Shown here: positions 1-16,696 of the stretch, piece after piece | Layout of the letters: every line of letters begins with the position of its first letter | Position numbering within the stretch: the stretch's first letter is position 1 | IMG/VR virus record: IMGVR_UViG_3300029878_000153 | Length of the DNA stretch: 16,831 nt | Origin: a virus | Taxonomy: Duplodnaviria; Heunggongvirae; Uroviricota; Caudoviricetes | Direction: 5' to 3' (one strand) | Made by a program: the position numbers and the translations under genes | Notes under the pieces: generated by a model | Seen by the model: only the letters and a program-made list of their open reading frames with translations | The model's database searches: none | Told to the model about the DNA's origin: nothing

Positions 1-74
1 GTGGCGGCCTCAGTCCGGAACAATTTGAAAACAAGAACCTCGCTTAGGCCTGTGTCCATATTACGTGGGTAGGA

Positions 75-1547
75 TCACGGCGTCGATGCTGCGGCGTTGG
101 CAAAATAACTCAGTGGCCCCGGGTTTGCCGGAGAAAGAGTTACCGAACCGCTGGCAGGAATGCTGCCGCCAACTGGAACGTAATACGCTCTGCGCCCACC
201 CTGAGCAGCAGCTGTGCCAACGCTTGTGCGTGAGCTTTTGCCAAAGTTATAGGCCGTGTAGCCGGTTAGCTCCTGCAGGCGTGTCAGCATACGGGGGTTA
301 TCAACCATTGAATGGCCCCACCCGCAAATGATCGGCCTGGACATTACAGAGTGCTCAGTCAGATCATTGATATAGCAATAATACTGCCCACCCGGTGCGC
401 GATTAGTCTCCCTGTCCGATTGCCAGATAACCTTATCACCATCAACGCGTGGCAAGGTTTCATTACTGGATGTATTGGTTACACGAACCTGCTGACCTGT
501 ATCGCGATCAAACAGGAAAATCTGCTCATAGCCTTCTTTCTCTTCGCTAAATGCAATGTAATCAGGCTGACCTGAATTTGTCAGGTCCGATGATTTCAGC
601 GACTCGATAACAACCAGGTTTTCAGATGTGGATGCAGAAATGTATCCACTATCTGCATACTCATCAGGTGAGAGAAACGTTACTGACTCTGGAAGAGGTG
701 ATAATGCGTCAGTAACACCCTTTACCTCTGTAAAATCGCTTCCTTCAATTACCGCATCGTCAACAACAATTTTGCTAAAATAAATGGTGGTGCCTTTAAT
801 GCCAACAATAATTCTATTGTTTTCAGAAAAAGTTGCTGAGTCATACCCTGAATCCGAAAATTCAGATATATCGACAAAAGTCGAAGCCTGTAAAAAAGGA
901 ACGATTCCAAGAAGGCTCTGCCCGGAAATTAAAATGTCGTTTCCTGAAAGGATTTCAGCAGCGAATTGATCTGCGCTGATTTCCCCCGCTCTGATTTTTT
1001 GGAAAAACCACTCGACACCTTTCCTGGATAGTAGTATTTTTTTATTTTCATCTAGTATAGCCTCTTCCACCCCAGAATCTTTATATTCATCAGGAGGAAA
1101 GAACTCTGACGCCTGTGTTATATTTAACAAAGGAGAGTAGGGATCAATAGCATCATCTACATACTTCTTAGATGGCATTTTTCTACCGGTGGGCTCAAGA
1201 GTGCCACCATTGTTAATTACTTCAATAGCCAGCGCGCTATCGTCAGGGCTGCGGTAATACGTGGTAGAACCCACCGGGATATTCGCTATATCCGCCTGCG
1301 CCGCTGCCAGCGTCATGTATTGCCGGCTGAGAGGGATCAGGTTTTGGCGGGCTTCATCAATAACAGCGTCGGTAGCAGCTGCCATTTTTTTAGTAGCCCC
1401 AATTATCGTATCCCGGGCGTTACCAAAACGATCTATAAAAGTATCGCTTTCGCTGTTCAGGAAATCATCGTACGCCATGGCGTTATCATTCAGATCCTTC
1501 ATGCTATTTGAAGGTCTTGGATTGCCGGTATTATATCTTTTGTCCAT
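75..1547 (-). CDS. Hypothetical prophage cargo protein (about 490 aa) with three tandem ~70-aa internal repeats; function unknown
   Basis: Long open frame 75..1616. Start preferred at the ATG at 1545-1547 (MDKRY...), which has AGGA 6 nt upstream; in-frame alternative starts at 1565 and 1616. Repeats FPPDEYKDSGVEEAILDEN / ISEFSDSGYDSATFSENN / LSPDEYADSGYISASTSEN at ORF residues about 172-333. No signal peptide or TM segment apparent. Product not recognised. Confidence 0.55.
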   Translation of the reverse strand: MDKRYNTGNPRPSNSMKDLNDNAMAYDDFLNSESDTFIDRFGNARDTIIGATKKMAAATDAVIDEARQNLIPLSRQYMTLAAAQADIANIPVGSTTYYRSPDDSALAIEVINNGGTLEPTGRKMPSKKYVDDAIDPYSPLLNITQASEFFPPDEYKDSGVEEAILDENKKILLSRKGVEWFFQKIRAGEISADQFAAEILSGNDILISGQSLLGIVPFLQASTFVDISEFSDSGYDSATFSENNRIIVGIKGTTIYFSKIVVDDAVIEGSDFTEVKGVTDALSPLPESVTFLSPDEYADSGYISASTSENLVVIESLKSSDLTNSGQPDYIAFSEEKEGYEQIFLFDRDTGQQVRVTNTSSNETLPRVDGDKVIWQSDRETNRAPGGQYYCYINDLTEHSVMSRPIICGWGHSMVDNPRMLTRLQELTGYTAYNFGKSSRTSVGTAAAQGGRRAYYVPVGGSIPASGSVTLSPANPGPLSYFANAAASTP

Positions 1548-1587
1548 ACCTGTTCCTGTCTTCATCTTTTCAATGAAGCAATTAAGA

Positions 1588-1616
1588 TTGACGACCCGCC
1601 CCTTCAGGGCTAACAT
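1588..1616 (+). promoter_or_regulatory. Candidate sigma70 promoter for the HTH-acyltransferase operon (TTGACG -35, 17-nt spacer, TAACAT -10)
   Basis: TTGACG at 1588-1593 and TAACAT at 1611-1616 with a 17-nt spacer, read directly from the sequence; not verified. Confidence 0.3.
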
Positions 1617-1648
1617 CGCCTTACGTGTTTAAACGGTTAAGTAAGAGA

Positions 1649-1912
1649 ATGATTTTAATAAATAAATACACTCCTCCAACGCAGGAAGATTTAGCCAGAC
1701 TGAAATCCGCAATAAACTACTCCGGAAACCAAATGGCAGGGCTCGCAGGTGTAGCCAGCGATAGCCAATGGCGGAAATACACTGGCGGAGAGAGCCCCAG
1801 GGTAATGTCAAGACACATACTGTTTTATATTGCAGCTCAGCTTGTTCTGTCTGATGAGCAACTTAACAATGTAATAAATAAAATGCGCGATATTGGCGCG
1901 GAGATAAAATAA
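1649..1912 (+). CDS. Small Cro/YdaS-like helix-turn-helix DNA-binding protein (87 aa from ATG 1649; 95 aa if GTG 1625 is used)
   Basis: Segment GNQMAGLAGVASDSQWRKYTGG matches the helix-turn-helix pattern of Cro/YdaS-type regulators (G-x-Q-x-x-A-x-L-x-G-V-S...W). Stop TAA (1910-1912) overlaps the ATG of the downstream gene (TAATG). AT-rich. Confidence 0.5.
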   Translation: MILINKYTPPTQEDLARLKSAINYSGNQMAGLAGVASDSQWRKYTGGESPRVMSRHILFYIAAQLVLSDEQLNNVINKMRDIGAEIK

Positions 1913-3003
1913 TGCTTGGCCTAATAAGGTTTTTTTTGGCATCGTGCGTCATTGCTTTTCACTTAACGGCTCGCATACCTGCACTTGGCAACTTTGCAGT
2001 GAATTGCTTCTATGTTATCAGTGGTTTTTTAATAACATACATTTTGCATGAAACATACAAGTTCAACTTCTCTATGTTTTGGAAAAATAGAATACTGAGG
2101 TTATTCCCGGCATATATATTTTTTCTCGTCATGGGCTTTCTTATTATAAAATTAATTCCATCCGCAAAGGAATTCCACTCAAACTGGACAGGCAATTTCT
2201 TACCTGGAGATTTATTAGGAAACCTCTTAATCTTCCCCTGGGCTTTCCTTTCTGATAATGCTGTAGCAAATCCATTCGGTGCCTTTTCATCCATTTATCA
2301 CTTTGCTATTGATGGTAATAGATTCAGAATAGTCACATCATCATGGTCAGTGGGTGTTGAGATAACATGTTATTTTTTATTGTGGCTTTTCATAGCCCGA
2401 AATAAATTTACAGCCATTACGTCGATTCTGCTTTCACTGCTTTATCATGCTTACGTATATGTAGTACACCATTCTTTTGATATGGCGTATTTCCCATTCC
2501 TTGCTGCAACACTTCCTTTTAGCATGGGTTCTCTGGGTTATTTTGCCCATAGAAAGTTCAAAGCTATGTATCTTTCTCCACACAAAGCTTTTTTAATAAC
2601 ATTTATTTGCATCGGGATTTTTATTACCAATTGGTATTTATATACAATTAATGCATTAGGTCAGTACAACATAATACTTTACTACACCAATAATGTAATA
2701 GCATTGTTTACAACCCTGGTATTATTAAAAATAAAGACAAACATACATCTTGAGAAAATACTCAAGTGGTTTGGTGACCTGGCCTATCCAATTTTTCTTT
2801 GTCAATATTTTGGTGGATTTCTAGCATGGCTTGCTATTGGTGGTGAAAATCGTGGCTTATCCATCTTTTTATTAGGCTACCCAATATCAATTGCACTTGG
2901 GATCGTTTGTGTAATATTAATAGACAAGCCACTAATTAAAATTAGAGCAAAAATAAGGGCGGACGCTCAAAGCAAAAATAATCAGGAAAACTCTTCAAGG
3001 TAA
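1912..3003 (+). CDS. Acyltransferase family 3 (AT3) integral membrane acyltransferase, Oac/OafA-like; candidate O-antigen/LPS acetylase
   Basis: 363 aa, highly hydrophobic with multiple predicted TM segments. N-terminal R-x10-H motif (R6...H17 in MLGLIRFFLASCVIAFH) and FYVISGFLI motif typical of AT3 proteins. GGAGA Shine-Dalgarno 7 nt upstream of the ATG. Very AT-rich compared with neighbouring phage genes. Confidence 0.8.
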   Translation: MLGLIRFFLASCVIAFHLTARIPALGNFAVNCFYVISGFLITYILHETYKFNFSMFWKNRILRLFPAYIFFLVMGFLIIKLIPSAKEFHSNWTGNFLPGDLLGNLLIFPWAFLSDNAVANPFGAFSSIYHFAIDGNRFRIVTSSWSVGVEITCYFLLWLFIARNKFTAITSILLSLLYHAYVYVVHHSFDMAYFPFLAATLPFSMGSLGYFAHRKFKAMYLSPHKAFLITFICIGIFITNWYLYTINALGQYNIILYYTNNVIALFTTLVLLKIKTNIHLEKILKWFGDLAYPIFLCQYFGGFLAWLAIGGENRGLSIFLLGYPISIALGIVCVILIDKPLIKIRAKIRADAQSKNNQENSSR

Positions 3004-3767
3004 ACTAAACCATTCGCTCCTTTTCCTGATGAATAGTTACCATTCCCCCCGGCACCACCTGAGCCGGGGAAACCGCCATCATCGCCAGAACTACCGAAGT
3101 GGCCATTGCCACCCGTTGATGAAAATGCAGATCCTCCAGCCCCGCCAATAAAAGCATCAGAACCATAATACAGACCACCTTGAGATATTCCGCCAGTAAT
3201 ATTTAAAATGTTCCCGCCACTTCCGATACCTCCAGCAGGAACTGTAGCCCCGCCACCACTCCCTCCAGTAGCTGAGATTAAACTCCCGAACCTTGTATCA
3301 CCACCATTCCCACCTTTAGACGAGACACCAGCAGCAACAGCACTGCCACCAGTACCTATCGTCACAGATATAGTTTCGTTATCAGAAATATTAAATAACC
3401 CTTCCGAAAATCCACCAGCACAACCTCCAGATGCGCCCACACTAACTGGAGCATTCTGGCCACCTCCCCCCGCTCCCCAAACTTTCACCCGCACTCTTTT
3501 CGTCCCTTTAGTTGGAGTGTAAGTCCCTGACTTAGTAAAGGTGACAATATTAAGCAGGCGACCGCCACCAATCGCTTTAAGAACCTGTGAATCATCATCA
3601 GGATCAAGCTCAAGCCCCGCGCCCTCAACAACGTTTACCAGCTCACGCTGAAAGGTATTCATCATCTCAGCATTAATTATTGTCGGTGAAATACCATTAG
3701 CGACATTACCATTAGTGTATTCACCATTAGCATCAGCGGTGTCAGTTGTACTGCCAACTTTTCTCAT
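2982..3767 (-). CDS. Phage tail fiber protein, short (261 aa), with a glycine-rich C-terminal region
   Basis: Sits directly after the baseplate genes on the same strand with an AAGAAGG Shine-Dalgarno. N-terminal segment MMNTFQRELVNVVEGAGLELDPDDDSQVLKAI resembles the baseplate-attachment region of tail fibers; the C-terminal two thirds are GGxGG-rich low complexity. The last 7 codons overlap the 3' end of the convergent AT3 gene. Confidence 0.65.
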   Translation of the reverse strand: MRKVGSTTDTADANGEYTNGNVANGISPTIINAEMMNTFQRELVNVVEGAGLELDPDDDSQVLKAIGGGRLLNIVTFTKSGTYTPTKGTKRVRVKVWGAGGGGQNAPVSVGASGGCAGGFSEGLFNISDNETISVTIGTGGSAVAAGVSSKGGNGGDTRFGSLISATGGSGGGATVPAGGIGSGGNILNITGGISQGGLYYGSDAFIGGAGGSAFSSTGGNGHFGSSGDDGGFPGSGGAGGNGNYSSGKGANGLVYLEEFS

Positions 3768-3793
3768 ATAAACCTTCTTTTTAAATGTCTGAA

Positions 3794-4468
3794 TTAAACG
3801 TAACCAGAAGCGATATCAAATATTTTGGCAAACTCAGGCGTGACTTCGTAAACCCCCTCATCGTTAAAACCGAAATAGATATAGCCGAATTTGACCAGGG
3901 TGTATGAGGGGGCGAGGGCATTAATCCGGCATTCAAGCTGACGATTACCCCAGGAACGTAATGGATCGCCACAATAACTCAGACCTGCACGGGCATAAGT
4001 TATCGTTGTGTCTTCCGCCTCTACCAGCCAGACAAATGGCCAGTCATCCCCATTTAGCCCGTCACCACATACCGATAAGCCAGCACGCGCCTGCCGGTAT
4101 TCCTTAATCGAAATCGTATAACCCATTGCTGCGGCAATACTGATGAAATAGCTCTTTGACTGCCCGCCGGTACTGATGAGTTTCGATACAATGGCAGACT
4201 GACGCTTCGCAATCGTATCCACTTCGCCAATCGAGCAATCATCAGGTAAGCCGAGTGTTTTTTCCCACTCGGTGAGCATAATCGTCGCAGTTTTTGGAAA
4301 GGCACCGCGCAGCAATGCAAGTGCGTCGTTATCACTACGCTGGAAACTGGCCGCAATGGCCCGCAGCACAGCAGCCTGAACAGCTTTTGGATCCCGTGTC
4401 CACGCTCGGCCGGTGGGGATAAGCGCCTGCAGTGCCTTCTGATAATCGTCTGTTGAGAAAAGGCTCAT
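3794..4468 (-). CDS. Phage baseplate/tail protein, Mu gp48 / YmfQ-like (DUF2313-type)
   Basis: 224 aa; ATGA start/stop overlap with the upstream baseplate J gene; position and sequence character match the Mu-type wedge protein that precedes the fiber. Confidence 0.7.
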   Translation of the reverse strand: MSLFSTDDYQKALQALIPTGRAWTRDPKAVQAAVLRAIAASFQRSDNDALALLRGAFPKTATIMLTEWEKTLGLPDDCSIGEVDTIAKRQSAIVSKLISTGGQSKSYFISIAAAMGYTISIKEYRQARAGLSVCGDGLNGDDWPFVWLVEAEDTTITYARAGLSYCGDPLRSWGNRQLECRINALAPSYTLVKFGYIYFGFNDEGVYEVTPEFAKIFDIASGYV

Positions 4469-5613
4469 GTGTAGTTCACCTCGCCACGAACAGCCAGCTC
4501 CCCAACTCCCGGCTCAATATTCGCAGAAGGCGACACAAGGATATAACCTGAAGTACCGGCAACATCCCCTATCGCGCGGTTGAGATCTGAAAGGTAAATT
4601 TTCCCTGTGCCGAGCGGGTTAGCAGATTCAAACAATACCCCGTCAATCGCATCAGCAATGGCCGCAGTCGTTGCGCTGTCGGCATCAGATATCCCGCTTA
4701 TTTCAAAATCGATAACGCGTTCGATGGGAGAGCAGACATAGTTAAGGGAGGTAACCGGCGCAAGCGGATACATATAATCGGCAACTCTCCCCTGATCCCC
4801 GGTGGCTTTTACAGCCCCCCACTCTTCCAGTTGAGAGACACCGTCAGTTCCTGCAGGGAATCCATGATTGGTTTTATCATCGCCGTCGCACATGATGTAA
4901 ATCACCACGGTACCCGGCCCCATCCCCCGGCGCCGTATCCATGCCCTGGTGATCCCCGACACGGATAAAGCCCAGCTTTTATAATCAGTGTCACTCCCGC
5001 CCTGCGGGGGATTCTGATACGCCAGCAGACCACGTAATCGGAAATCCTCTTCACTTTCAATGTTGGCGCCGCCGGTGGCGGGCTCAATCAGCGTAACCGA
5101 GCTGTCTATGCCGGGGGCATTAGCATCCAGTGTAAGAATGGTGCCAGCATCGGCATTTCCGGAAGCGCCTCCTCCTGTCACATCGTCTGTGATATCCGGC
5201 AAAACCGCTGTTACAGCAACCGACGCACTGCCAGCAGTGTTTATCGTTATGGCATCATCGGTTGTGTACTGGTAACCATCATCACGGTTTAACACCGCCC
5301 CTTTTGACAGTGTTTTCCCCGGCGTTCCGGTAACGGTCGCCGCCGGAGAGCGTGCTGCCGTTGCGGCTTTTCGGTAAATCTGCTTTAGCGCCATCCATCC
5401 GGCAAGCCACTCATCGGTAGAGGTGAAAGGCGTGCTCTGACGGGCAATATAATCCAGGTAGGCGTAGTGCAGATGGGCCATGCCCGCATCCATATCAGCG
5501 AGCACCTTAAGGTTGCCAAACCGTAACAACGCGCCAACACTTTCAAGCTCTGCCTGCATAAACTGGCGATTCTCCTGCCGGAGCTCGCTCAGTGTTTTCC
5601 GCTTAAATGGCAT
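4465..5613 (-). CDS. Baseplate J-like protein (Mu gp47 / P2 gpJ family)
   Basis: 382 aa; order V - gp46 - J - gp48 - fiber conserved; translationally coupled to its neighbours. Confidence 0.8.
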   Translation of the reverse strand: MPFKRKTLSELRQENRQFMQAELESVGALLRFGNLKVLADMDAGMAHLHYAYLDYIARQSTPFTSTDEWLAGWMALKQIYRKAATAARSPAATVTGTPGKTLSKGAVLNRDDGYQYTTDDAITINTAGSASVAVTAVLPDITDDVTGGGASGNADAGTILTLDANAPGIDSSVTLIEPATGGANIESEEDFRLRGLLAYQNPPQGGSDTDYKSWALSVSGITRAWIRRRGMGPGTVVIYIMCDGDDKTNHGFPAGTDGVSQLEEWGAVKATGDQGRVADYMYPLAPVTSLNYVCSPIERVIDFEISGISDADSATTAAIADAIDGVLFESANPLGTGKIYLSDLNRAIGDVAGTSGYILVSPSANIEPGVGELAVRGEVNYT

Positions 5614-6052
5614 TATTCAGTTGCTCCCATAGCCAGAAGAATTTGAACTCCTGCCAGTCCCCCGTCGGCGGCAAATACCGGATGATGAGGTTCAGCCTGT
5701 TCGGGAAAACAATCTCTGACTGAGCCTCTATCGCTGCTGCAATACCATCCGACTTCATCCAGGCCAGAGCCTCTTCGGCGTAATCTTCAGCTCTCATCGC
5801 CACTTCGCGCGTCAGTTTTTCACGCCGCAGTAGCCACAGCCTTGAGCCAATATTCCGGTCGTTGTCCAGATCCCCCCACCAGCCGCGGCGGTCAGTTCCT
5901 TCATAATCATCATCAGCGCGCGCCAGTCCGTCAGTAAACAAACTGATAATAATGGCCGTGTGCATATCATTCTCAGATGTCAGTACGCCGTTACCGGTTT
6001 GCCAGTCAGCATGAATGGCATCCACATCCCAGAATGAGGAAATATCACTCAT
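5603..6052 (-). CDS. Baseplate wedge protein, Mu gp46 / T4 gp25-like (GPW/gp25 family)
   Basis: 149 aa; ATGA overlap with the upstream spike gene; characteristic size and position. Confidence 0.75.
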   Translation of the reverse strand: MSDISSFWDVDAIHADWQTGNGVLTSENDMHTAIIISLFTDGLARADDDYEGTDRRGWWGDLDNDRNIGSRLWLLRREKLTREVAMRAEDYAEEALAWMKSDGIAAAIEAQSEIVFPNRLNLIIRYLPPTGDWQEFKFFWLWEQLNNAI

Positions 6053-6630
6053 ACCTGACTCTCTGTTTTTTCGCTTGTGATCGTGCTATCGCCGGACTGA
6101 ACTTCTTTAACGTCATGGTCATGATCGTTGTGAGCATCCCGCAGCGCTTTGAGCGTTGAATTGTTCGTCTCGCAGTTATCGATGATGTCACCCGTCACCA
6201 GGAGTTTGGGGGTAACCAGCTTTACCTGTTCCGTTGCCGTCGCGGTGATGTTTCGGGCATTGTTGATCTCTACATCTTTGCCTTTCGCATCAATGAAAAT
6301 TCCCGCCTCAGTCAGATGAATATTCATCCCCTGCTGGTTATAGACCACCGTTTCGCCTGGCTTAAGCCCGGTATGCCGGTAGCTTTGATGGTTAGAGGCA
6401 ATGACGACGGGACTGGAGCGGTCCCCGCCGAGAAAGGCAATAAGCACATCCGATCCCGCCGGCAACCCCGATGAAAAACCAAAATCAGAGAGCCGTGGGG
6501 CGCTGGCCACTTCCAGCGGAGTCTGGTACTGGATTTCCTGCACAACCCCGCTATCTTTCTGCGTGGTAATACGGCCAATTCCCAGCATGCCGGCGATGCG
6601 CGTGGCCGATTTCTTTAAATTTTGATTCAT
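6049..6630 (-). CDS. Baseplate spike / assembly protein V (Mu gp45 / P2 gpV-like)
   Basis: 193 aa; C-terminal HNDHDHD His-rich apex motif as in gpV/gp5-type spikes; gene order. Confidence 0.8.
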   Translation of the reverse strand: MNQNLKKSATRIAGMLGIGRITTQKDSGVVQEIQYQTPLEVASAPRLSDFGFSSGLPAGSDVLIAFLGGDRSSPVVIASNHQSYRHTGLKPGETVVYNQQGMNIHLTEAGIFIDAKGKDVEINNARNITATATEQVKLVTPKLLVTGDIIDNCETNNSTLKALRDAHNDHDHDVKEVQSGDSTITSEKTESQV

Positions 6631-7340
6631 TGGTTTAGTCCGGGTATTTGCTGGTAGAAAGCATAAGGCTGGACAGCGAAAGCCTCCGGGGGCATCAGAT
6701 AAAGGCGCGCATGGGTGCCGTCACTGTCTCTGATATAAGTCACCTCTGCGATAAGCAATTCGGTGTCAGGCAGCTGCAGACTCGGGATGTTGACCGGGAT
6801 AAGCGTATTCGGCTCCCATAATCTCCCGGATTTATCGCGCCAGGAATCAATCGTCACCGTTAACTGACGGGAACGGCCGTATCGGCGGTTCATCTCCCAG
6901 TCAATCGCTCGCTGAGCCTGTTGTGAAGCCATCAGTGTACTTTCAACAATAATGATCCGTTTTCGGTAACGCATACTGGCTGCCTCAGGATCGCGGGCCG
7001 TAGCCAGCGTCACCGAATCATAAGCCGTATCTGGCGAGAATCCTGCAATCGGCGAAATGCTCATCGATACGCCGACGTAATCAGAAAAGCGGTCAGCCAT
7101 CGAACGGCGGTAATAAGCCTGTTCGATATTTACCCCTTCTGCGATACCACTGGCCGCGCGCTTTGTCCCCACCCGGGTCAGAAATAAGTTACCGTCAGGC
7201 TGATCGTAATAAAGCAATGCCGACCAGCGGGAGACACGATCAAGTATTTCCTGTGGCGATTCCCCCCAGTTCAGGGAAAATTGCGGGACTTTCACCAGAT
7301 CATCAACGTCTGTACTTACGCCAATGTTGTAATGGGATGC
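6627..7340 (-). pseudogene. Baseplate hub protein (P2 gpD / Mu gp44 family), 5'-truncated fragment
   Basis: The C-terminal part of the 7487..6627 ORF shows gpD-family character (QQAQRAIDWEMNRRYGRSRQLTVTIDSW...). The first ~50 codons of the ORF are low-complexity read-through into integrase DNA on the opposite strand. The gpD homology and the roughly 140 missing N-terminal residues rest on a recalled P2 gpD sequence, not an alignment. The upper coordinate is approximate. Confidence 0.6.
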
Positions 7341-7420
7341 GAGGCGGGAGGCTAGACGGGATGGAAAACCGCCGCCATCGCCTGAACTGGGAAATGAGCC
7401 GGGACAGGTGTTTGCGGCTT

Positions 7421-8194
7421 GGCAAGCCAGTGCCGGAGTATAAACCAAAGCTGGCAAGCAAAGGAACGAAGACGCGGCATCTGGCAATACTTCGCGCTAT
7501 TCTCAATATGGCTGTTGAATGGGGATGGCTTGACAGGCCTCCCAAAATATCAACACCACGCGTTAAGAATGGACGCATTAGATGGCTTACAGAAGAGGAA
7601 TCGAAGCGCCTGTTTGCAGAAATAGCTCCTCATTTCTTCCCTGTGGTCATGTTCGCAATAACTACAGGCCTTCGCCGTTCCAACGTTACAGACCTTGAGT
7701 GGTCACAGGTCGATCTGGATAAGAAAATGGCATGGATGCACCCTGATGAAACAAAAGCTGGCAATGCGATCGGAGTTCCTCTTAACGAAACCGCATGCCA
7801 GATATTAAGAAAACAGCAGGGTCTCCATAAGAGATGGGTGTTTGTCCACACCAAACCTGCCTACCGAAGCGACGGAACAAAAACAGCAGCGGTAAGGAAG
7901 ATGAGAACCGACAGCAACAAAGCATGGAAGGGAGCGTTAAAGCGGGCAGGCATTAGCAACTTCCGCTTCCATGACCTGAGGCATACCTGGGCAAGCTGGC
8001 TGGTTCAGTCCGGTGTCTCTCTTCTTGCACTTAAAGAGATGGGAGGATGGGAAACTCTCGAAATGGTTCAAAGATACGCCCACCTTTCAGCCGGGCATCT
8101 CACCGAGCACGCAAGCAAAATCGATGCGATTATAAGTCGCAATGGCACAAATACGGCACAAGAGGAGAACGTGGTTTACTTAAATGCTAGGTAA
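7421..8194 (+). pseudogene. Tyrosine recombinase (phage integrase), 5'-truncated; catalytic domain retained
   Basis: Catalytic signatures present: TGLRRS (Arg), HDLRHT (H-x-x-R), RYAHL (Tyr). Only about 85 residues precede the catalytic Arg, versus about 210 in lambda Int, so the N-terminal arm-binding domain is missing. The ORF-track extension back to 7163 is antisense read-through of the hub gene. Stop TAA at 8192-8194, 15 bp from the tRNA 3' end. Start coordinate approximate. Confidence 0.75.
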
Positions 8195-8225
8195 CTTATT
8201 GATTTAAATGGTGCCGATAATAGGA
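8195..8225. other. Predicted attL region (3' end of thrW plus the spacer to the integrase stop)
   Basis: Position only: the integrase ends 15 bp from the tRNA CCA end. The exact core cannot be defined without the attR copy, which is outside the window. Confidence 0.4.
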
Positions 8226-8284
8226 GTCGAACCTACGACCTTCGCATTACGAATGCGCTGCTCTACCAACTGAGCTATATCGGC
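8209..8284 (-). tRNA. thrW: tRNA-Thr (anticodon CGU)
   Basis: Reverse complement reads GCCGATATAGCTCAGTTGGTAGAGCAGCGCATTCGTAATGCGAAGGTCGTAGGTTCGACTCCTATTATCGGCACCA: 76 nt cloverleaf with 7-bp acceptor stem, GTTCGA T-loop, encoded CCA, anticodon CGT. Confidence 0.95.
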
Positions 8285-8335
8285 CCTGAAAGGACATGTT
8301 CACGAACGTGAATCACGGTGGACAAGGTTAAAACT

Positions 8336-8394
8336 AACCGGGCGATGCGTCAATGGCCTTGTGAATCAAATGGCTACTTTTGCATCACCCGGTT
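8336..8394 (-). terminator. Long inverted repeat immediately after the proA stop, followed by a U-run; candidate terminator/attenuator before thrW
   Basis: 12-bp arms AACCGGGCGATG (8336-8347) and CATCACCCGGTT (8383-8394), one G-U position, separated by about 35 nt; on the minus-strand transcript the stem is followed by AGUUUUAACC. The loop is unusually large, so confidence is low. Confidence 0.3.
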
Positions 8395-8398
8395 TTAT

Positions 8399-9652
8399 TT
8401 ACGCACGAATGGTGTAATCACCAATGCCGATCCACTTGTAAGTGGTCAGTGCTTCCAGCCCCATTGGGCCACGCGCGTGGAGTTTTTGTGTGCTTACCGC
8501 CACTTCCGCACCCAGACCAAACTGGCCGCCGTCGGTAAAACGCGTAGAGGCGTTAACGTAAACAGCGGACGAATCCACTTCGTTAACAAAACGCTGGGCG
8601 TTGCGCATATCGCGGGTCAGGATCGCATCGGAGTGTTGTGTGCCGTGTTCACGAATATGGGCGATGGCATCGTCAAGATCGCTGACGATTTTGACGTTCA
8701 AATCTAATGACAGAAACTCATCGTCATACTCTTCGGCTTTAACAGCAACCACCTTCGCAGGGCCTGCCTGCAACTGCGCCAGTGCAGCTGCATCTGCGTG
8801 TAATGTCACGCCGCTTTCCGCCATTTGTTTGCTTAATGCGGGCAGGAAGCTATCGGCGATGTTTTTATTCACCAGCAACGTTTCAACCGTATTACATGTG
8901 CTCGGACGCTGAGTTTTCGCGTTGACGATCACTTTTAATGCTTCAGCGATCTCTACACTTTCATCAACGTAAATATGGCATACGCCTATACCACCTGTGA
9001 TCACCGGGATTGTCGACTGTTCACGGCACAGTTTATGCAAACCAGCGCCACCACGCGGGATCAGCATGTCGATGTATTTATCCATACGCAGCATTTCACT
9101 GACCAGCGCACGGTCAGGATTATCAATCGCCTGCACGGCACCCGCCGGTAAGCCGCAGGATTTCAGGGCGTCCTGAATCACCGCCACCGTTGCAGCGTTA
9201 GTGCGACACGTTTCTTTGCCACCGCGCAGGATCACCGCATTACCGGTTTTCAGGCACAGCGAAGCGACATCAACCGTCACGTTCGGGCGCGCTTCATAAA
9301 TCACGCCAATAACCCCCAGCGGTACGCGACGACGCTCAAGACGCAGGCCGCTGTCCAGTACGCCGCCATCGATTACCTGCCCCACCGGATCGGCGAGGTT
9401 ACACACCTGGCGCACATCGTCGGCAATGCCTTTCAGCCGTGCGGGCGTCAGTGCCAGACGGTCAAGCATCGCTTCGCTAAGGCCGTTGGCACGCGCGTCA
9501 GCAACATCCTGCGCGTTAGCGTTGAGGATGATTTCGCTTTGTGCTTCCAGTTCATCGGCTATTTTTTCCAGTACGCGATTTTTTTCGCGGCTGGAGAGTT
9601 GCGCTAATTTATACGAGGCTTGCTTCGCGGCAATGCCCATTTGTTCCAGCAT
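8399..9652 (-). CDS. proA: Gamma-glutamyl phosphate reductase
   Basis: 417-aa ORF recognised as ProA ([20 protein letters not shown]...), aldehyde dehydrogenase-like; conserved synteny downstream of proB. Confidence 0.96.
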
Positions 9653-9663
9653 CAGCCTGCTCC

Positions 9664-10767
9664 TTAACGGGTAATCATGTCATCACGGTGAACGGCAACC
9701 GGGCCGTATTCATATCCCAGTATTGCATCAATTTCTTGCGAGTGGTGTCCGGCAATACGGCGTAATGCATCGCTGTTGTAACGACTGACACCGTGGGCGA
9801 TATCGCGGCCTTCGAGGTTGCAAATGCGGATGACTTCACCACGCGAGAAGTTGCCAGTCACGCTTTTAATGCCTTTCGGCAACAGGGAGCTGCCGCGTTC
9901 CAGAATGGCGGCAGTTGCCCCTTCATCTACCGTGATTTCCCCCGCAGGCGGCGCACCGAAAATCCAGCGTTTACGGTTTTCAAGCGGAGTCGCCTGGGCA
10001 TGGAACAGCGTACCGACGGAAATGCCTTCCATCACATCACCAATAACGCCCGGCTTGCTGCCCGCGGCAATAATGGTGTCGATACCCGCACGGCAAGCCA
10101 CGTCAGCGGCCTGCAATTTGGTACTCATGCCGCCAGTTCCGAGGCCTGAAACGCTGTCACCGGCAATCGCGCGCAGTGCGTCATCAATGCCGTAAACATC
10201 TTTAATCAGTTCTGCCTGCGGATTGCTGCGCGGATCAGCGGTATACAAACCTTTTTGATCGGTCAGCAGCAACAGTTTATCGGCACCCGCCAGAATCGCC
10301 GCCAGCGCAGAAAGGTTATCGTTATCGCCGACCTTAATCTCTGCCGTAGCGACAGCATCGTTCTCATTGATTACCGGAACGATATTGTTATCGAGCAACG
10401 CACGCAGGGTGTCGCGGGCGTTCAGGAAGCGTTCTCGGTCTTCCATATCAGCACGGGTCAGCAGCATTTGCCCGACGTGAATGCCATAAATCGAAAACAG
10501 CTGTTCCCACAGTTGAATCAGTCGACTCTGCCCTACCGCCGCCAGCAGTTGTTTCGAGGCGATAGTCGCTGGCAGTTCCGGGTAACCCAGGTGCTCACGT
10601 CCGGCGGCGATCGCGCCCGACGTCACAATAACAATCCGATGCCCGGCGGCATGTAACTGCGCGCACTGGCGAACAAGTTCAACGATATGGGCACGGTTCA
10701 GACGGCGCGATCCGCCTGTTAGCACACTGGTGCCGAGTTTTACCACCAGCGTCTGGCTGTCACTCAT
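9664..10767 (-). CDS. proB: Glutamate 5-kinase
   Basis: Recognised as ProB beginning [16 protein letters not shown] (ATG at 10765-10767); the ORF-track start at 10854 is an upstream in-frame extension. 11-nt gap to proA. Confidence 0.96.
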
Positions 10768-10955
10768 GATTCTCTGCCATTCAATTTTAGGAAAAATGAT
10801 ATCAAACGAACGTTTTAGCAGGACTGTCGTCGGTTGCCAACCATCTGCGAGCAAAGCATGGCGTTTTGTTGCGCGGGATCAGCAAGCCTAGCGGCAGTTG
10901 TTTACGCTTTTATTACAGATTTACTAAATTACCACATTTTAAGAATATTATTAAT

Positions 10956-10973
10956 CTGTAATATATCTTTAAC
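10956..10973 (+). promoter_or_regulatory. Pho box (PhoB binding site) in the phoE promoter
   Basis: CTGTAATATATCTTTAAC matches the 7-4-7 pho box consensus CTGTCAT-A(A/T)A(T/A)-CTGTCA(C/T); it lies about 80 bp upstream of the phoE start. phoE is a known Pho regulon member. Confidence 0.6.
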
Positions 10974-11054
10974 AATCTCAGGTTAAAAACTTTCCTGTTT
11001 TCAACGGGACTCTCCCGCTGAATATTCGCGCGTTAATTAAAATCAGGAATGAAA

Positions 11055-12110
11055 ATGAAAAAGAGCACTCTGGCATTAGTGGTGATGGGCATTGTGGCAT
11101 CTGCATCCGTACAGGCCGCAGAAATATATAACAAAGACGGTAATAAACTGGATGTCTATGGCAAAGTTAAAGCCATGCATTATATGAGTGATAACGACAG
11201 TAAAGATGGCGACCAGAGTTATATCCGTTTTGGTTTTAAAGGCGAAACACAAATTAACGATCAACTGACTGGCTATGGTCGTTGGGAAGCGGAGTTTGCC
11301 GGTAATAAAGCAGAGAGTGATACTGCACAGCAAAAAACGCGTCTCGCTTTTGCCGGGTTGAAATATAAAGATTTGGGTTCTTTCGATTATGGTCGTAACC
11401 TGGGCGCGTTGTATGACGTGGAAGCCTGGACCGATATGTTCCCGGAATTTGGTGGCGACTCCTCGGCGCAGACCGACAACTTTATGACCAAACGCGCCAG
11501 CGGTCTGGCGACGTATCGGAACACCGACTTCTTCGGCGTTATCGATGGCCTGAACTTAACCCTGCAATATCAAGGGAAAAACGAAAACCGCGACGTTAAA
11601 AAGCAAAACGGCGATGGCTTCGGCACGTCATTGACATATGACTTTGGCGGCAGCGATTTCGCCATTAGTGGGGCCTATACCAACTCAGATCGCACCAACG
11701 AGCAGAACCTGCAAAGCCGTGGCACAGGCAAGCGTGCAGAAGCATGGGCTACAGGTCTGAAATACGATGCCAATAATATTTATCTGGCAACTTTTTATTC
11801 TGAAACACGCAAAATGACGCCAATAACTGGCGGCTTTGCCAATAAGACACAGAACTTTGAAGCGGTCGCTCAATACCAGTTTGACTTTGGTCTGCGTCCA
11901 TCGCTGGGTTATGTCTTATCGAAAGGGAAAGATATTGAAGGTATCGGTGATGAAGATCTGGTCAATTATATCGATGTCGGGGCTACGTATTATTTCAACA
12001 AAAATATGTCAGCGTTTGTTGATTATAAAATCAACCAACTGGATAGCGATAACAAATTGAATATTAATAATGATGATATTGTCGCGGTTGGCATGACCTA
12101 TCAGTTTTAA
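11055..12110 (+). CDS. phoE: Outer membrane phosphoporin PhoE
   Basis: Recognised PhoE sequence with signal peptide [21 protein letters not shown] and C-terminal aromatic residue (...TYQF); AGGA 6 nt upstream of the ATG at 11055. The ORF-track start at 11049 is 2 codons upstream. Confidence 0.95.
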
Positions 12111-12118
12111 TGGATATT

Positions 12119-12139
12119 GCCGGATGTGATACATCCGGC
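12119..12139. terminator. Perfect 9-bp stem hairpin between convergent phoE and crl; candidate bidirectional terminator or REP-like element
   Basis: GCCGGATGT-GAT-ACATCCGGC; no strong U-tract on either side, so terminator function is uncertain. Confidence 0.4.
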
Positions 12140-12148
12140 ACATTTCAC

Positions 12149-12607
<459 letters not shown>

Positions 12608-13852
12608 TTAACACAAACGTTTTTCGATCCAGTCTGTGATTTCCTGAAGACCTTTGTCAAAATTCCGATACACCGGGTTAAATGGGATCTCTAATAATTT
12701 ACCGTCAGCAGATGATGAGGTGATTAAGCGTGAGTCCTCTTCCGGGCTGAACGGATCGTTCTTCCAGTAGCCTGATAACATTGGCGTTGGGCAGCGACGT
12801 CCCAGCAATCCTTGCACTTTTAATGAATAGCGATTCAGCTCCACGCGCAACGCTTCATCGGAAGCATCATGCATCCCCAAACGACTGGCCAGAACGTCAA
12901 GATACATTTCCGGCACCTGTTGCTGGCACTTAAAATCACTCAACAGGGTATGAACTACCGGACCAAGACAGGCAACCGCTTTCAGACGCGGCGATTCAAG
13001 ATATGCCAGACGCACGGCAACGTTAGCGCCGAAACGGAAACCAAAGGCCGCGACGCGAGTGTGATCCACCCACGGTACGTTAGGCAGCGCCTTTAAGACG
13101 TGCTGATGCAACAGGCTGGAGTCCTGGGTGAGCTTCCATTTTGAAGAAAAGCCCACCGATGGCATATCAATAGTCAGCATCGCAATGCCGCGCGGCGCAA
13201 AATAACGTTCATACAGGCTGTAATAGTCCGTCTGCATCGCATCCAGACCACCACACATTAATACTGTCGGGAACGGGCCATCGCCTTTCGGCATATGCAA
13301 AAAGCCGGTGATGGGCGCACCGCCGGGTACGGTAAACTCCATCTGCCGCATCGTGCCCGGCAGACGCTGGGCGGCCTCTTCATAGGCGCGGTTTGATAAA
13401 GCCTGCGCTTGCTCGGCCAGGTCATCTCCTTTCAGATGAGGATAGGCGGCAATGTTGTACAACGTAGCCGCATGCAGCCAGTGTCGACCACTGAGTTGCG
13501 GATCTTCTTCCGCACAGGCTTTTTGTTGCCACACCATCGCCTGGGTGGCCCACTCATAAATCCAGTTGCCACCACGGTAGCCAATCACAGTATCGTATAA
13601 ATCATCGTCGGTACGTTCAGCATCGCTCATCACAATACGTGCCTGGACGTCGAGGATTTCACGTGGGTCAATACCGCGCCAGATCCACATCAGACGGTTA
13701 ATCATGCGATACCAGTGAGGGATGGTTTTACCATCAAGAGCCGACTGCACAGGCGGTTGTGCGCCGTGATTAAAGCGGCGGACTAGCGTCGAGGTTTCAG
13801 GATGTTTAAAGCGGGGTTTGAACAGGGTTTCGCTCAGGTTTGCCTGTGTCAT
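12608..13852 (-). CDS. frsA: Fermentation/respiration switch protein FrsA (alpha/beta hydrolase fold esterase)
   Basis: 414-aa ORF recognised as FrsA ([27 protein letters not shown]...); conserved position between gpt and crl. Confidence 0.95.
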
Positions 13853-13902
13853 GGATGCAGCCTCCAGAATACTTACTGGAAACTATTGTAACCTGCCTGA
13901 AG

Positions 13903-13935
13903 TTAAAAAGAACAACGCCCGGCAGTGCCAGGCGT
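13903..13935 (-). terminator. Rho-independent terminator downstream of gpt
   Basis: On the minus-strand transcript: stem AACGCCUGGCA / UGCCGGGCGUU with loop CUG, followed by GUUCUUUUUAAC; begins 9 nt after the gpt stop. Confidence 0.55.
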
Positions 13936-13943
13936 TGAAAAGA

Positions 13944-14402
13944 TTAGCGACCGGAGATTGGCGGGACGAATACGACGCCCATATCCCACGGCTGTTCGAT
14001 CCAGGTATCTTGCGGGATATCAACAACATAGTCATCAACCAGCGGACGACCAGCCGGTTTTGCGAAGATGGTGACAAAGTGCGCTTTTGGATACATTTCA
14101 CGAATCGCAACCGCAGTACCACCGGTATCCACCAGGTCATCAATAACGATGAAGCCTTCGCCATCGCCTTCTGCGCGTTTCAGCACTTTAAGCTCGCGCT
14201 GGTTGTCGTGATCGTAGCTGGAAATACAAACGGTATCGACATGACGAATACCCAGTTCACGCGCCAGTAACGCACCCGGTACCAGACCGCCACGGCTTAC
14301 GGCAATAATGCCTTTCCATTGTTCAGAAGGCATCAGTCGGCTTGCGAGTTTACGTGCATGGATCTGCAACATGTCCCAGGTGACGATGTATTTTTCGCTC
14401 AT
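13944..14402 (-). CDS. gpt: Xanthine-guanine phosphoribosyltransferase
   Basis: 152-aa ORF recognised as Gpt ([23 protein letters not shown]...), with PRPP-binding motif [11 protein letters not shown]. Confidence 0.96.
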
Positions 14403-14662
14403 GTGAAGTGTCCCAGCCTGTTTATCTACGGCTTAAAAAGTGTTCGAGGGGAAAATAGGTTGCGCGAGATTATAGAGATCTGGCGCACTAAAAACCAGTA
14501 TTTCACATGAGTCCGCGTCTTTTTACGCACTGCCTCTCCCTGACGCGGGATAAAGTGGTATTCTCAAACATATCTCGCAAGCCTGTCTTGTGTTGACAAC
14601 ATTTTCTGCTAACCCTGTGACCTGCAATACTGTTTTGCGGGTGATCGACAAGGAGACTTAAC

Positions 14663-16120
14663 GTGTCTGAACTGTCTCAATTATCTCCACAGCCGCTGTG
14701 GGATATTTTTGCCAAAATCTGTTCTATTCCTCACCCGTCCTATCATGAAGAGCAACTCGCTGAATACATTGTTGGTTGGGCAAAAGAGAAAGGTTTCCAT
14801 GTCGAACGCGATCAGGTAGGTAATATCCTGATTCGTAAACCTGCCACCGCAGGTATGGAAAATCGTAAACCGGTCGTCTTGCAGGCCCACCTCGATATGG
14901 TGCCGCAGAAAAATAACGACACCGTGCATGACTTCACGAAAGATCCTATCCAGCCTTATATTGATGGTGAATGGGTTAAAGCGCGCGGCACCACGCTGGG
15001 TGCAGATAACGGCATTGGTATGGCGTCTGCGCTGGCGGTTCTGGCTGACGAAAACGTGGTTCACGGCCCGCTGGAAGTGCTGCTGACCATGACCGAAGAA
15101 GCCGGTATGGACGGTGCGTTCGGCTTACAGAGCAACTGGTTGCAGGCTGATATTCTGATTAACACCGACTCCGAAGAAGAAGGTGAAATCTACATGGGTT
15201 GCGCGGGGGGTATCGACTTCACCTCCAACCTGCATTTGGATCGTGAAGCGGTTCCAGCTGGCTTTGAAACCTTCAAGTTAACCTTAAAAGGTCTAAAAGG
15301 CGGTCACTCCGGCGGTGAAATCCACGTTGGCCTGGGTAATGCCAACAAACTGCTGGTGCGCTTCCTGGCGGGTCATGCGGAAGAGCTGGACCTGCGCCTT
15401 ATCGATTTCAACGGTGGCACACTGCGTAACGCCATCCCGCGTGAAGCCTTTGCGACCATTGCTGTCGCAGCTGATAAAGTCGACGCCCTGAAATCTCTGG
15501 TGAATACCTATCAGGAGATCCTGAAAAACGAGCTGGCAGAAAAAGAGAAAAATCTGGCCTTGTTGCTGGACTCTGTAGCGAACGATAAAGCTGCCCTGAT
15601 TGCGAAATCTCGCGATACCTTTATTCGTCTGCTGAACGCCACCCCGAACGGTGTGATCCGCAACTCCGACGTGGCAAAAGGTGTGGTCGAAACCTCCCTG
15701 AACGTCGGTGTGGTGACCATGACTGACAATAACGTAGAAATTCACTGTCTGATCCGTTCTCTGATCGACAGCGGTAAAGACTACGTGGTGAGCATGCTGG
15801 ATTCGCTGGGTAAACTGGCTGGCGCGAAAACCGAAGCGAAAGGCGCATATCCTGGCTGGCAGCCGGACGCTAATTCTCCGGTGATGCATCTGGTACGTGA
15901 AACCTATCAGCGCCTGTTCAACAAGACGCCGAACATCCAGATTATCCACGCGGGCCTGGAATGTGGTCTGTTCAAAAAACCGTATCCGGAAATGGACATG
16001 GTTTCTATCGGGCCAACAATCACCGGTCCACACTCTCCGGATGAGCAAGTTCACATCGAAAGCGTTGGTCATTACTGGACACTGCTGACTGAACTGCTGA
16101 AAGAAATTCCGGCGAAGTAA
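14663..16120 (+). CDS. pepD: Cytosol non-specific dipeptidase (aminoacyl-histidine dipeptidase, M20 family)
   Basis: 485-aa ORF recognised as PepD (MSELSQLSPQPLWDIFAKICSIPHPSYHEE...); GTG start at 14663 with AGGAG 8 nt upstream. Confidence 0.96.
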   Translation: MSELSQLSPQPLWDIFAKICSIPHPSYHEEQLAEYIVGWAKEKGFHVERDQVGNILIRKPATAGMENRKPVVLQAHLDMVPQKNNDTVHDFTKDPIQPYIDGEWVKARGTTLGADNGIGMASALAVLADENVVHGPLEVLLTMTEEAGMDGAFGLQSNWLQADILINTDSEEEGEIYMGCAGGIDFTSNLHLDREAVPAGFETFKLTLKGLKGGHSGGEIHVGLGNANKLLVRFLAGHAEELDLRLIDFNGGTLRNAIPREAFATIAVAADKVDALKSLVNTYQEILKNELAEKEKNLALLLDSVANDKAALIAKSRDTFIRLLNATPNGVIRNSDVAKGVVETSLNVGVVTMTDNNVEIHCLIRSLIDSGKDYVVSMLDSLGKLAGAKTEAKGAYPGWQPDANSPVMHLVRETYQRLFNKTPNIQIIHAGLECGLFKKPYPEMDMVSIGPTITGPHSPDEQVHIESVGHYWTLLTELLKEIPAK

Positions 16121-16132
16121 TTATTTGATTTG

Positions 16133-16170
16133 CTGCCGGATGGCGTTTAATCGCCTTCCGGCAGTTTCAT
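16133..16170 (+). terminator. Hairpin terminator after pepD (also separates the convergent prfH remnant)
   Basis: Arms CTGCCGGATGGCG / CGCCTTCCGGCAG with one mismatch, loop TTTAAT, followed by TTTCATCCTTCATTAT; starts 13 nt after the pepD stop. Confidence 0.5.
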
Positions 16171-16176
16171 CCTTCA

Positions 16177-16696
16177 TTATCCTTCGATAAAAGCCATCCC
16201 TGTAAATGTCCGTCGCGGGTTGCCACGTTCAATCTGGTGATGGAACATTCGCCGCTGCGATTTCAGCGCCGCGCTATTTTCCTGTTGCTGCTGCTCCAGC
16301 TTCCAGGCAATCAGCAATCGCGCCAGCCGTTTGTTAGCATGCTGGCTGCGCTCTGACTGAACCTTCACGCTAATACCGGATGCCAGATGCGTGGCGCGTA
16401 CCGCCGAGTCGGTTTTATTGACATGTTGACCGCCCGGCCCCGACGAACGCAGCGTCTCATAACGGATTGCATCCGATTGTTCCTTCTCATCAGCGGTAAA
16501 ACGCCCAATGCCCAGAAACCAGTTTTTGCGCCCATGATGAGGCCGATACGGACTCGGACAAATCCACTGAATAGTGCCACACCAGCTTTCGCTTAATGCC
16601 CATGCGTTATCGCCATCCAGAGAAACCAGCGCCGAACGCAGCGTGTCAGAGTAGCGGCCCGTTTCTGTTTCCAGCACCGTTACAGCGACGTCTTGT
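16177..16696 (-). pseudogene. prfH: Peptide chain release factor homolog RF-H, N-terminally truncated remnant
   Basis: Contains the GGQ motif ([11 protein letters not shown]) of class I release factors. The first ~12 codons of the ORF-track frame ([11 protein letters not shown]) are rtcB-like DNA read in another frame, so the real N-terminus is missing. Same pepD-adjacent position as the prfH pseudogene recalled from E. coli K-12. Confidence 0.6.

Follow-up and report, generated by a model that had tools for sequence, protein, structure and literature searches.

We report on a stretch of DNA of 16,831 nucleotides, hereafter the window, which is recorded as a tailed virus (IMG/VR record IMGVR_UViG_3300029878_000153) and is Escherichia coli DNA that contains the tail end of a prophage. 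Within the prophage part lies a cassette of two genes, a small gene for an 87-residue helix-turn-helix (HTH) protein followed by a gene for a 363-residue membrane acyltransferase of the AT3 family. The cassette is most likely an ordinary lysogenic-conversion moron, and on balance we favour a reading in which it has been kept in a defective prophage as a self-damped operon, with the AT3 enzyme acylating the surface glycan that the tail spike recognizes. An initial annotation of this DNA had proposed a module for serotype conversion or exclusion; judged from its sequence, such a role is still the best reading of an AT3 gene placed among the tail-fibre genes of a prophage, on the strand opposite to them and with a foreign base composition.

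We propose the following model for the activity of the cassette. A conserved sigma-70 promoter (1588-1616) would drive the two-gene operon opposite to the tail genes, and the HTH protein, as a dimer, would bind the palindrome that its own promoter carries in the spacer, thereby damping the operon. The AT3 protein would be translated by coupling to the small gene and, by analogy with characterised AT3 proteins, would take an acyl group, probably acetyl, from acyl-CoA in the cytoplasm and hand it to a glycan in the periplasm or at the surface. As acceptor we consider most likely the surface polysaccharide recognized by the tail spikes of this phage lineage, which in E. coli would probably be the O9-type polymannose O antigen or an accompanying glycan. 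The outcome would be an altered serotype and an altered adsorption of related phages that carry acetyl-esterase tail spikes. The small gene and its promoter would thus form a conserved platform in the phage backbone, behind which the enzyme is exchangeable.

The second gene encodes an AT3-only acyltransferase

From its sequence, the second gene is clearly predicted to encode an AT3-only membrane acyltransferase with all of the catalytic hallmarks. A search with the PF01757 profile bore out the family assignment of the initial annotation, scoring 57.9 bits against a cutoff of 31 and aligning residues 4-336 with positions 6-323 of the 326 in the profile. The hallmarks that had been picked out by eye, R6...H17 and FYVISGFLI, are present as R6-X10-H17 and F33-Y-V-I-S37-G38, together with R60-I-L-R63; across 30 AT3 homologues, down to 16% identity, R6, H17, F33, S37, G38, R60, R63, P66, E150, Y154 and Y292 are invariant. 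The R/K-X10-H, FFxISG and RxxR motifs are the defining marks of functional AT3 carbohydrate acetyltransferases, and OafA and Oac cannot work without them (PMC7448272). The hydropathy profile has eight segments at a Kyte-Doolittle value of at least 1.5 over 19 residues, and weaker ones besides, for an AT3 expectation of about ten transmembrane helices, which is consistent with a polytopic protein. The 363-residue protein has no SGNH match and no 11th helix; it would thus be an AT3-only protein, like Oac.

Oac of Shigella phage Sf6, and likewise OacB, OacD and the Oac of the E. coli O157 phage phiV10, are prophage AT3-only proteins of about 330-360 residues with the R/K-X10-H, FFxISG-type and RxxR motifs, and in the Sf6 annotation oac adjoins the tail-spike gene, lies opposite to the structural genes and has its own promoter, with a presumed role in serotype conversion and exclusion. 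Prophage AT3 acetyltransferases beside tail-spike genes are a classic theme (PMC9558356). The description of the window protein as Oac-like holds at the level of the superfamily; it does not extend to orthology, because BLASTP with Sf6 Oac aligns just 44 residues, at 36% identity, and the profile-profile match (hhalign probability 97.4%) covers the N-terminal 142 columns only. Sf6 oac further differs in having no upstream HTH gene and an annotated terminator, and the backbones are different, the window belonging to a myovirus with a Mu-like baseplate and Sf6 being a P22-like podovirus. The fused AT3-SGNH proteins OafA and OafB of Salmonella share the AT3 hallmarks, but the window protein lacks their SGNH domain and 11th helix.

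The closest relatives of the enzyme lie outside the sequenced phages. Its 85 database homologues come from Enterobacterales, Pseudomonas and Legionella and are all uncharacterised. Against 50,697 phage records, megablast of the whole module gave no match, and the only tblastn matches of the AT3 protein were to two gut contigs and, at 28% identity, to a Vibrio phage, with no Shigella phage among them; together these outcomes indicate that no sequenced phage carries this AT3 or a close relative. Neither cassette protein matched a PADLOC defence-system profile at E ≤ 0.1.

The marks of a moron are present in a conserved promoter of its own, in a GC content of 0.35 against about 0.5, and in the placement on the opposite strand between tail genes; a terminator of its own was not among the features found. 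The whole block had been described as AT-rich, which is true of the AT3 gene (GC 0.352, GC3 0.33); the small open reading frame is only intermediate, at 0.428, with the tail genes at 0.46-0.53.

An O9-type surface is the probable acceptor

By association only, the O9-type surface is the probable target of the phage and acceptor of the enzyme. Of 5426 complete E. coli genomes, 32 have the AT3 gene (identity 99% or more in 27, 98.9% in 5), and 202 have an O9-family O-antigen cluster. When 41 of the O9-cluster genomes were sampled at even steps, 8 had the module, where about 0.24 would be expected if the two were independent, a figure uncorrected for phylogeny. Every sampled module-bearing E. coli genome has the O9 cluster, though the sites of the module differ (those of the intact related locus L001, of L002 and of the window), and apparently all 32 module-bearing genomes, or nearly all, are O9-type. 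The mannans of E. coli O9a and Klebsiella pneumoniae O3 are identical (PMC7685785), and this fits the near-identical phage backbones found in E. coli and Klebsiella.

The tail spikes of this lineage carry esterase-type domains. The intact spike of L001 has 703 residues, with 213 codons beyond the point at which the window breaks off, and its C-terminal 287 residues (L001:15937-16800) match PDB 9sij/9sim, 'tail spike protein', with an E-value of 3e-46. We guess that PDB 9sij is tied to the tail-spike esterase domain of epsilon15, the subject of a 2026 preprint. In the centre of the L001 spike are beta-propeller repeats of the TolB/PD40 type and a ...DEY.DSG...SEN... repeat in three copies. The spike of E. 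coli HS carries instead a SASA acetylesterase domain (PF03629), and the tail fibre of Serratia phage vB_SspM_BZS1 (BZS1) was assigned to the same esterase family by HHpred (PMC7556043). A further 11 loci combine esterase-type fibres with cargo of the AT3 or hexapeptide type.

The enzyme may act on something other than the O antigen, such as the group 1 K antigen (K-LPS), colanic acid, enterobacterial common antigen, peptidoglycan or osmoregulated glucans, which would leave the operon logic unchanged; we think this possible but rather unlikely. The O9 mannans are, to our knowledge, non-acetylated, and the backbone of the prophage is 98.5% identical to that of a K. pneumoniae prophage. AT3 proteins use many acceptors (PMC9558356), and a 2026 study of Klebsiella prophages, in which SGNH receptor-binding proteins and acetyltransferases predict the capsule type, calls these proteins an under-appreciated layer of specificity (PMC13123978). 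In E. coli HS (L160:13117-47935) the O9 polymannose cluster lies beside a Klebsiella-like group 1 capsule locus, which would suit a capsular acceptor; however, the capsule type fails as a common denominator, since of the 14 genomes with the variable region of the HS K locus only the 4 HS records have the module, while every module-bearing genome sampled has the O9 cluster.

A conserved promoter and an Aca-like protein

The promoter that the initial annotation had proposed, TTGACG-17 nt-TAACAT, is very probably real, because its -35/-10 pair is conserved in register in 22 related loci. It is the only promoter-like site on the plus strand near the operon; resemblance to the consensus is by itself not above chance, a scan of 1400-3200 finding 3 promoter-like sites against 6.1 expected in shuffles. 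The 22 aligned loci, from two proteobacterial classes, share the form TTGACA-N2-3-TAGCMCC-N3-GGGGCTA-(-10), with a 17-nt spacer and a -10 element of TATTAT or a variant in the same register, and within the entire upstream region conservation is highest in the palindrome core. TTGACG-ACCCGCCCCTTCAGGGC-TAACAT of the window is orthologous to this family promoter and keeps the core (GCCC...GGGC); CTTACGTG, which follows directly, is common to the window and BZS1. The palindrome occurs once in the window and once in the whole BZS1 genome. In an exact-pattern scan of 2.9 million viral contigs there were 65 matches, 46 of them with a homologue of the small gene within 71-308 nt downstream.

The start of the small gene is placed at ATG 1649, giving 87 residues, and not at the upstream GTG 1625, because the homologues all begin with MRLI.., which aligns with MILI.. 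in the window. The gene ends in TAA at 1910-1912, the last base of which doubles as the first base of the ATG of the AT3 gene at 1912-1914; this TAATG overlap (1910-1914) and the GGAGA Shine-Dalgarno sequence ahead of the second start had been noted before and can be read directly in the DNA.

No Pfam or NCBIfam model matched the small protein above threshold (HTH_31 at E 0.24, WXG100 at E 0.047, NCBIfam RstR at E 0.065), and the PHROG that does match, 20491, has no function assigned to it. The family comprises 1227 clusters at 90% identity from prophages of Gamma- and Betaproteobacteria, whose members bear NCBI names such as 'XRE family' or 'helix-turn-helix'; a Pfam domain was absent from the best 120 of the 1227 clusters. 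An AlphaFold2 model built on a shallow alignment of 34 sequences reached a pLDDT of 63 and gave uninformative Foldseek E-values, and was superseded by one from 72 diverse sequences, with a pLDDT of 94.1 and a pTM of 0.80. The latter has five helices (12-21, 26-33, 38-45, 55-66 and 69-82), of which the second and third form the helix-turn-helix of the XRE type. Its top Foldseek matches are the HTH of AcrIF24 (probability 1.0, TMq 0.60, 26% identity), Aca10, Aca1 and Aca2, followed by phage 186 regulators, HigA antitoxins and the controller proteins of restriction-modification systems, all top matches being XRE-type HTH proteins. A sequence profile search also ranks AcrIF24 and Aca3 first, though not significantly (E 0.26-0.5). 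The small protein is thus confidently modelled as an XRE-type HTH protein closest to the anti-CRISPR-associated autorepressors.

The prediction of a Cro/YdaS-like HTH protein therefore survives in its fold, as seen in the AlphaFold2 model and the Foldseek matches, and fails in its family: there is no match to the Pfam YdaS, Cro or HTH_3 profiles, and the nearest structures are Aca-type autorepressors. The gene sits between tail-fibre genes and not at an immunity switch opposite CI; in BZS1, CI and Cro lie at 35-36 kb, 15 kb from the homologue of the small gene.

It is through a palindrome in a near-consensus promoter that Aca proteins keep acr operons in check. The solved folds of Aca1, Aca2, Aca10 and the AcrIF24 HTH are the closest to the window protein, and these too are small phage HTH proteins in an operon with an accessory gene. 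The likeness has its limits: the window operon has no anti-CRISPR gene, its cargo being AT3 here and an SGNH protein, a hexapeptide acetyltransferase or others in relatives; its HTH gene is the first in the operon and not the last; and sequence similarity alone is not significant. The promoter palindrome, which occurs only once in the window and in the BZS1 genome, and the QWRKYTGG segment of the presumed recognition helix, which is nearly invariant in the family, together lead us to infer that the small protein is an autorepressor acting on its own promoter.

It is unlikely, in our judgement, that the small protein is a backbone regulator with another main job, such as control of the divergent tail-spike gene, a part in lysis-lysogeny or excision near the end of the prophage, or an antitoxin-like role, on whose transcript the cargo merely hitch-hikes. 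The small gene does share a 100-bp divergent intergenic region with the tail-spike gene, but most members of the family have a small membrane-protein gene and a hairpin between the promoter and the tail-spike side. In many loci the small gene is the last gene of the prophage, beside an integrase gene or host DNA and with no cargo at all; BZS1 has separate CI, Cro, excisionase and Q genes. HigA antitoxins and phage 186 regulators are listed by Foldseek, yet a conserved toxin-like partner is absent, and on this ground we rejected a toxin-antitoxin reading. Finally, the palindrome is also found at promoters without the small gene, while at the small gene it lies inside the spacer of the gene's own promoter and, in BZS1, is the single copy in the genome.

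The usual order in the family is the promoter, a conserved leader, a gene of 55-60 codons with a C-terminal membrane segment (p26 in BZS1), a hairpin and then the HTH gene. The hairpin is GC-rich, with GNRA or UUCG loops and a T run, of the form AGCCCC-(GNRA/UUCG)-GGGGC, and its arms resemble those of the promoter palindrome; hairpin and membrane-protein gene (motif AELEKIHAEIAKLMAET..NRE..WYP) are seen at L003:4781-5000 and at the equivalent places in L008-L012, L014, L016-L023 and L036. In the E. coli/Klebsiella variant both have been lost, so that the promoter directly drives the HTH gene; the short layout without p26 is found in the viral contigs L124 and L157 as well. The GC-rich stem in the window spacer was considered as a remnant of the p26-p25 hairpin and rejected, the alignment showing that it is the promoter-spacer palindrome. 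The leader, GGTAGCG(G/A/C)-N4-6-CGCAGCCC-N3-5-CCCGAAAGGA, precedes the membrane-protein gene at L003:4745-4790 and at 17 other loci of Gamma- and Betaproteobacteria (alignment A6). It had no Rfam match, and RNAalifold gave a stem of three pairs with no compensatory changes; Rfam in E-value mode, applied to window 1-8400 and to related loci, three in number, gave no match in the cassette or near it and matched thrW alone.

Just past the -10 element, roughly where transcription should start, the window has an imperfect 22-bp palindrome, CTTACGTGTTTAAACGGTTAAG (1620-1641), the left part of which is the CTTACGTG shared with BZS1; it may represent a second operator or the scar of a deletion. We rejected Gtr-type phase variation, through Dam and OxyR, as GATC is absent from the regulatory region 1548-1648. 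Among the 19 pattern matches other than the 46 described above, 16 form one class, upstream of a gene for a DnaQ-like exonuclease in viral contigs of another phage group (L107, L112, L116, L120, L122, L125, L130, L132-L136, L143, L144, L152). There the promoter has the form TTGACG-N2-TAGCCCCGCTGGGGCTA, and L110 has two divergent copies (at 10227-10629).

A platform with exchangeable cargo

The pairing of the small gene with an AT3 gene is real and recurrent, but it is not dedicated. A search for such two-gene pairs in other prophages, which the initial annotation had suggested, found that the HTH-acyltransferase pairing recurs in many of them; nor is the arrangement new, as had been supposed, since the HTH-AT3 cluster of BZS1 (p26-p25-p24) was described in silico by Bujak et al. 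2020, who noted its recurrence next to acetyltransferases and assigned no function (PMC7556043). The small HTH protein of BZS1 is 66% identical to that of the window and has the same palindrome promoter, and the cluster lies on the opposite strand, flanked by Mu-gp48-type baseplate and tail-fibre genes on one side and by a tail fibre with an esterase on the other. BZS1 differs in having, between promoter and HTH gene, an additional gene for a small membrane protein, p26, and a hairpin that resembles a terminator, neither of which is in the window; in its AT3, which is of another subfamily and is missed by tblastn with the window protein; and in being an intact, inducible phage, where the window holds a remnant disrupted by IS3.

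Among Gamma- and Betaproteobacteria, 80 genomes were found to carry the small gene, as were 18 sequenced phages, and its position is constant: after the tail-fibre genes, on the opposite strand and near the end of the prophage. What follows it varies, from AT3, fused AT3-SGNH, SGNH alone or SGNH plus AT3 to a hexapeptide acetyltransferase, a Wzy-like or a GH43-like protein, or no cargo, in which case an integrase or host gene comes next. An OafA/OafB-type fused form (PF01757+PF19040) stands behind the small gene in L008, and split SGNH and AT3 genes in PE067, L057 and L065. In related loci the cargo starts between -19 and +10 nt from the stop of the small gene. Among 46 viral contigs the cargo was AT3 in 14, SGNH in 8 (one also with AT3) and a hexapeptide acetyltransferase in 7; acetyl-transfer chemistry, in three unrelated folds, is thus encoded in 28 of the 46 loci.

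Comparison of close relatives shows where the exchange takes place. A prophage of K. pneumoniae has a small protein 98-99% identical to that of the window and an AT3 only 49% identical, and the block that diverges between E. coli and Klebsiella takes in the AT3 gene, the glycine-rich fibre in its C-terminal part and the distal tail spike. The Klebsiella counterpart (L092:1151-4705) encodes an 876-residue tail spike and then a 304-residue protein with a PF09206 arabinofuranosidase-type catalytic domain, in place of the E. coli esterase spikes. Homologues of the AT3 protein in Pantoea and Sodalis prophages (53% and 45% identity) also adjoin tail-fibre genes and have no small gene. From the cargo, Klebsiella and Pantoea/Sodalis comparisons we conclude that the small gene belongs to the phage backbone and that the enzyme is exchangeable cargo which co-varies with the receptor-binding modules.

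The same distribution largely refutes the remaining alternative, in which the small protein is a dedicated partner of AT3, either its specific regulator, as the initial annotation had it, or a subunit required for activity, and which we hold to be very improbable: translational coupling through TAATG, the HTH gene directly upstream of AT3 in E. coli, Klebsiella, Serratia, Lonsdalea and 14 viral contigs, and the 'cooperation or dependent components' suggested by Bujak et al. (PMC7556043) speak for it, but the small gene stands equally before SGNH hydrolases, hexapeptide acetyltransferases, Wzy-like and GH43-like genes, integrases and host genes, the Pantoea and Sodalis enzymes do without it, the protein has stayed nearly constant between E. 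coli and Klebsiella while the AT3 has not, and its AlphaFold2 model is a soluble HTH fold without a membrane segment.

Points against a self-damped conversion moron

Several points weigh against our preferred reading of the cassette as a self-damped conversion moron acting on the glycan that the spike recognizes. No terminator-like site was found in a scan between the AT3 gene and the convergent tail-fibre gene (after 3003). The palindrome of the window is degenerate, with 4 of 7 arm pairs, and 19 of the 65 pattern matches have no homologue of the small gene in the available sequence, so that the binder could be another protein. We know of no published O9 structure other than non-acetylated mannans, and the association with O9 could stem from the host range of the phage or from clonal inheritance and not from the substrate of the enzyme. 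The pairing of an esterase spike with an acetyltransferase is not self-evidently a logic of exclusion, and in a remnant any benefit of exclusion would fall to the host alone.

Implications

Serotype, vaccine epitopes and the susceptibility of a cell to phages are all changed by prophage acetyltransferases. Both the enzyme class and the general part it plays are already well known, and the regulatory platform is of modest interest and widely reused. The AT3 of the window could point to a so far unrecognised O-acetylated form of the O9/O3 polymannan, or of a glycan that occurs with it, with a bearing on O-antigen typing, immunotherapy and phage therapy. The unit of promoter, palindrome and HTH protein offers a testable model of how moron expression is held at tolerable levels, and the pattern TTGAC-N2-3-TAGCNCC-N3-GGGGCTA, together with the small gene, a sequence handle for glycan-modifying prophage cargo. 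In the literature we found no description of the Aca-like fold of the small protein or of the conserved palindrome-bearing promoter, nor of the breadth of the platform over two proteobacterial classes, the bias of its cargo to acetyl transfer in three folds, or the association with O9.

A bolder view, which we put forward tentatively and consider doubtful as it stands, is that a portable self-repressing platform of myovirus-type prophages in Gamma- and Betaproteobacteria drives interchangeable O-acetylation enzymes for surface glycans, of the AT3, left-handed beta-helix and SGNH folds, that are matched to acetyl-esterase tail spikes encoded beside them; enzyme and spike would make up a widespread acetylate/de-acetylate 'lock and key' that serves to exclude superinfecting phages and lets the host range evolve. 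Bujak et al. had speculated on a pair of deacetylase fibre and acetylase (PMC7556043). If this were true, the E. coli form would act on O9-type strains and imply an undescribed O-acetylated O9/Klebsiella O3 mannan.

The prophage remnant and its chromosomal setting

The cassette is intact and is housed in a defective remnant, bounded on one side by a deletion against the integrase gene and on the other by IS3 (Table 1). The tail end of the prophage occupies 77-7346, with the Mu-like baseplate genes gp45-gp48, the glycine-rich tail fibre and the tail spike, and 7347-16831 is core E. coli chromosome with the truncated integrase gene, thrW, proA, proB, phoE, crl, frsA, gpt, pepD and prfH. The tail-spike gene is divergent from the cassette; the glycine-rich tail-fibre gene is convergent with the AT3 gene and overlaps its 3' end by 22 nt. 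It is in the baseplate genes that the 98.5% identity to the K. pneumoniae prophage was measured.

Table 1. Features of the cassette and its surroundings in the window.
Feature	Coordinates	Strand	Basis
IS3 element terminus, interrupting the tail-spike gene	1..76	.	100% match; 'IS3-like element' ends at 12770 E. coli genome places
Tail spike, truncated: N-terminal anchor, beta-propeller repeats, start of esterase-type domain	75..1547	-	phrog_19652, tail-fibre PHROGs, TolB/PD40
Probable sigma-70-type promoter TTGACG(1588)-17 nt-TAACAT(1616)	1588..1616	+	Scan match, orthologous in 22 loci
Palindrome core GCCCCTTCAGGGCTA in promoter spacer	1598-1612	+	Scan and 22-locus alignment
87-residue Aca-like XRE-type HTH protein (p25 family), predicted; first gene of the operon	1649..1912	+	phrog_20491, E 9e-30; AlphaFold2; Foldseek
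GGAGA Shine-Dalgarno sequence for the AT3 gene	1900..1904	+	Within the 3'-terminal part of the small gene; 7 nt ahead of the AT3 start codon
363-residue AT3-only membrane acyltransferase, predicted (cargo gene)	1912..3003	+	PF01757, phrog_3333 O-acetyltransferase
Glycine-rich tail-fibre gene	2982..3767	-	PF21722 Gly_rich_2, phrog_863
Mu-like baseplate gp48, gp47, gp46, gp45, truncated gp44-like	3794..7346	-	PF10076 Phage_Mu_Gp48; annotation of identical L002 genes
Deletion junction with truncated integrase gene, then tRNA-Thr thrW 8212-8284 (-)	7347..8284	.	Rfam for thrW
Core chromosome, proA to pepD, prfH	after thrW to 16831

The window departs from the intact locus L001 exactly at 77. The IS3 insertion point lies in the esterase-type C-terminal domain of the tail spike, and the junction creates the stop of the open reading frame at 75-77. 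At the other end a fragment of a baseplate gene abuts the truncated integrase gene beside thrW (7347-8284), from which it follows that everything between the baseplate genes and the integrase has been lost from the prophage. The prophage or cassette occupies at least three different chromosomal sites in the contexts examined (L001, L002 and the window), and strain 22F46 has a similar junction of integrase and baseplate fragment at thrW, the DNA beyond it being different.

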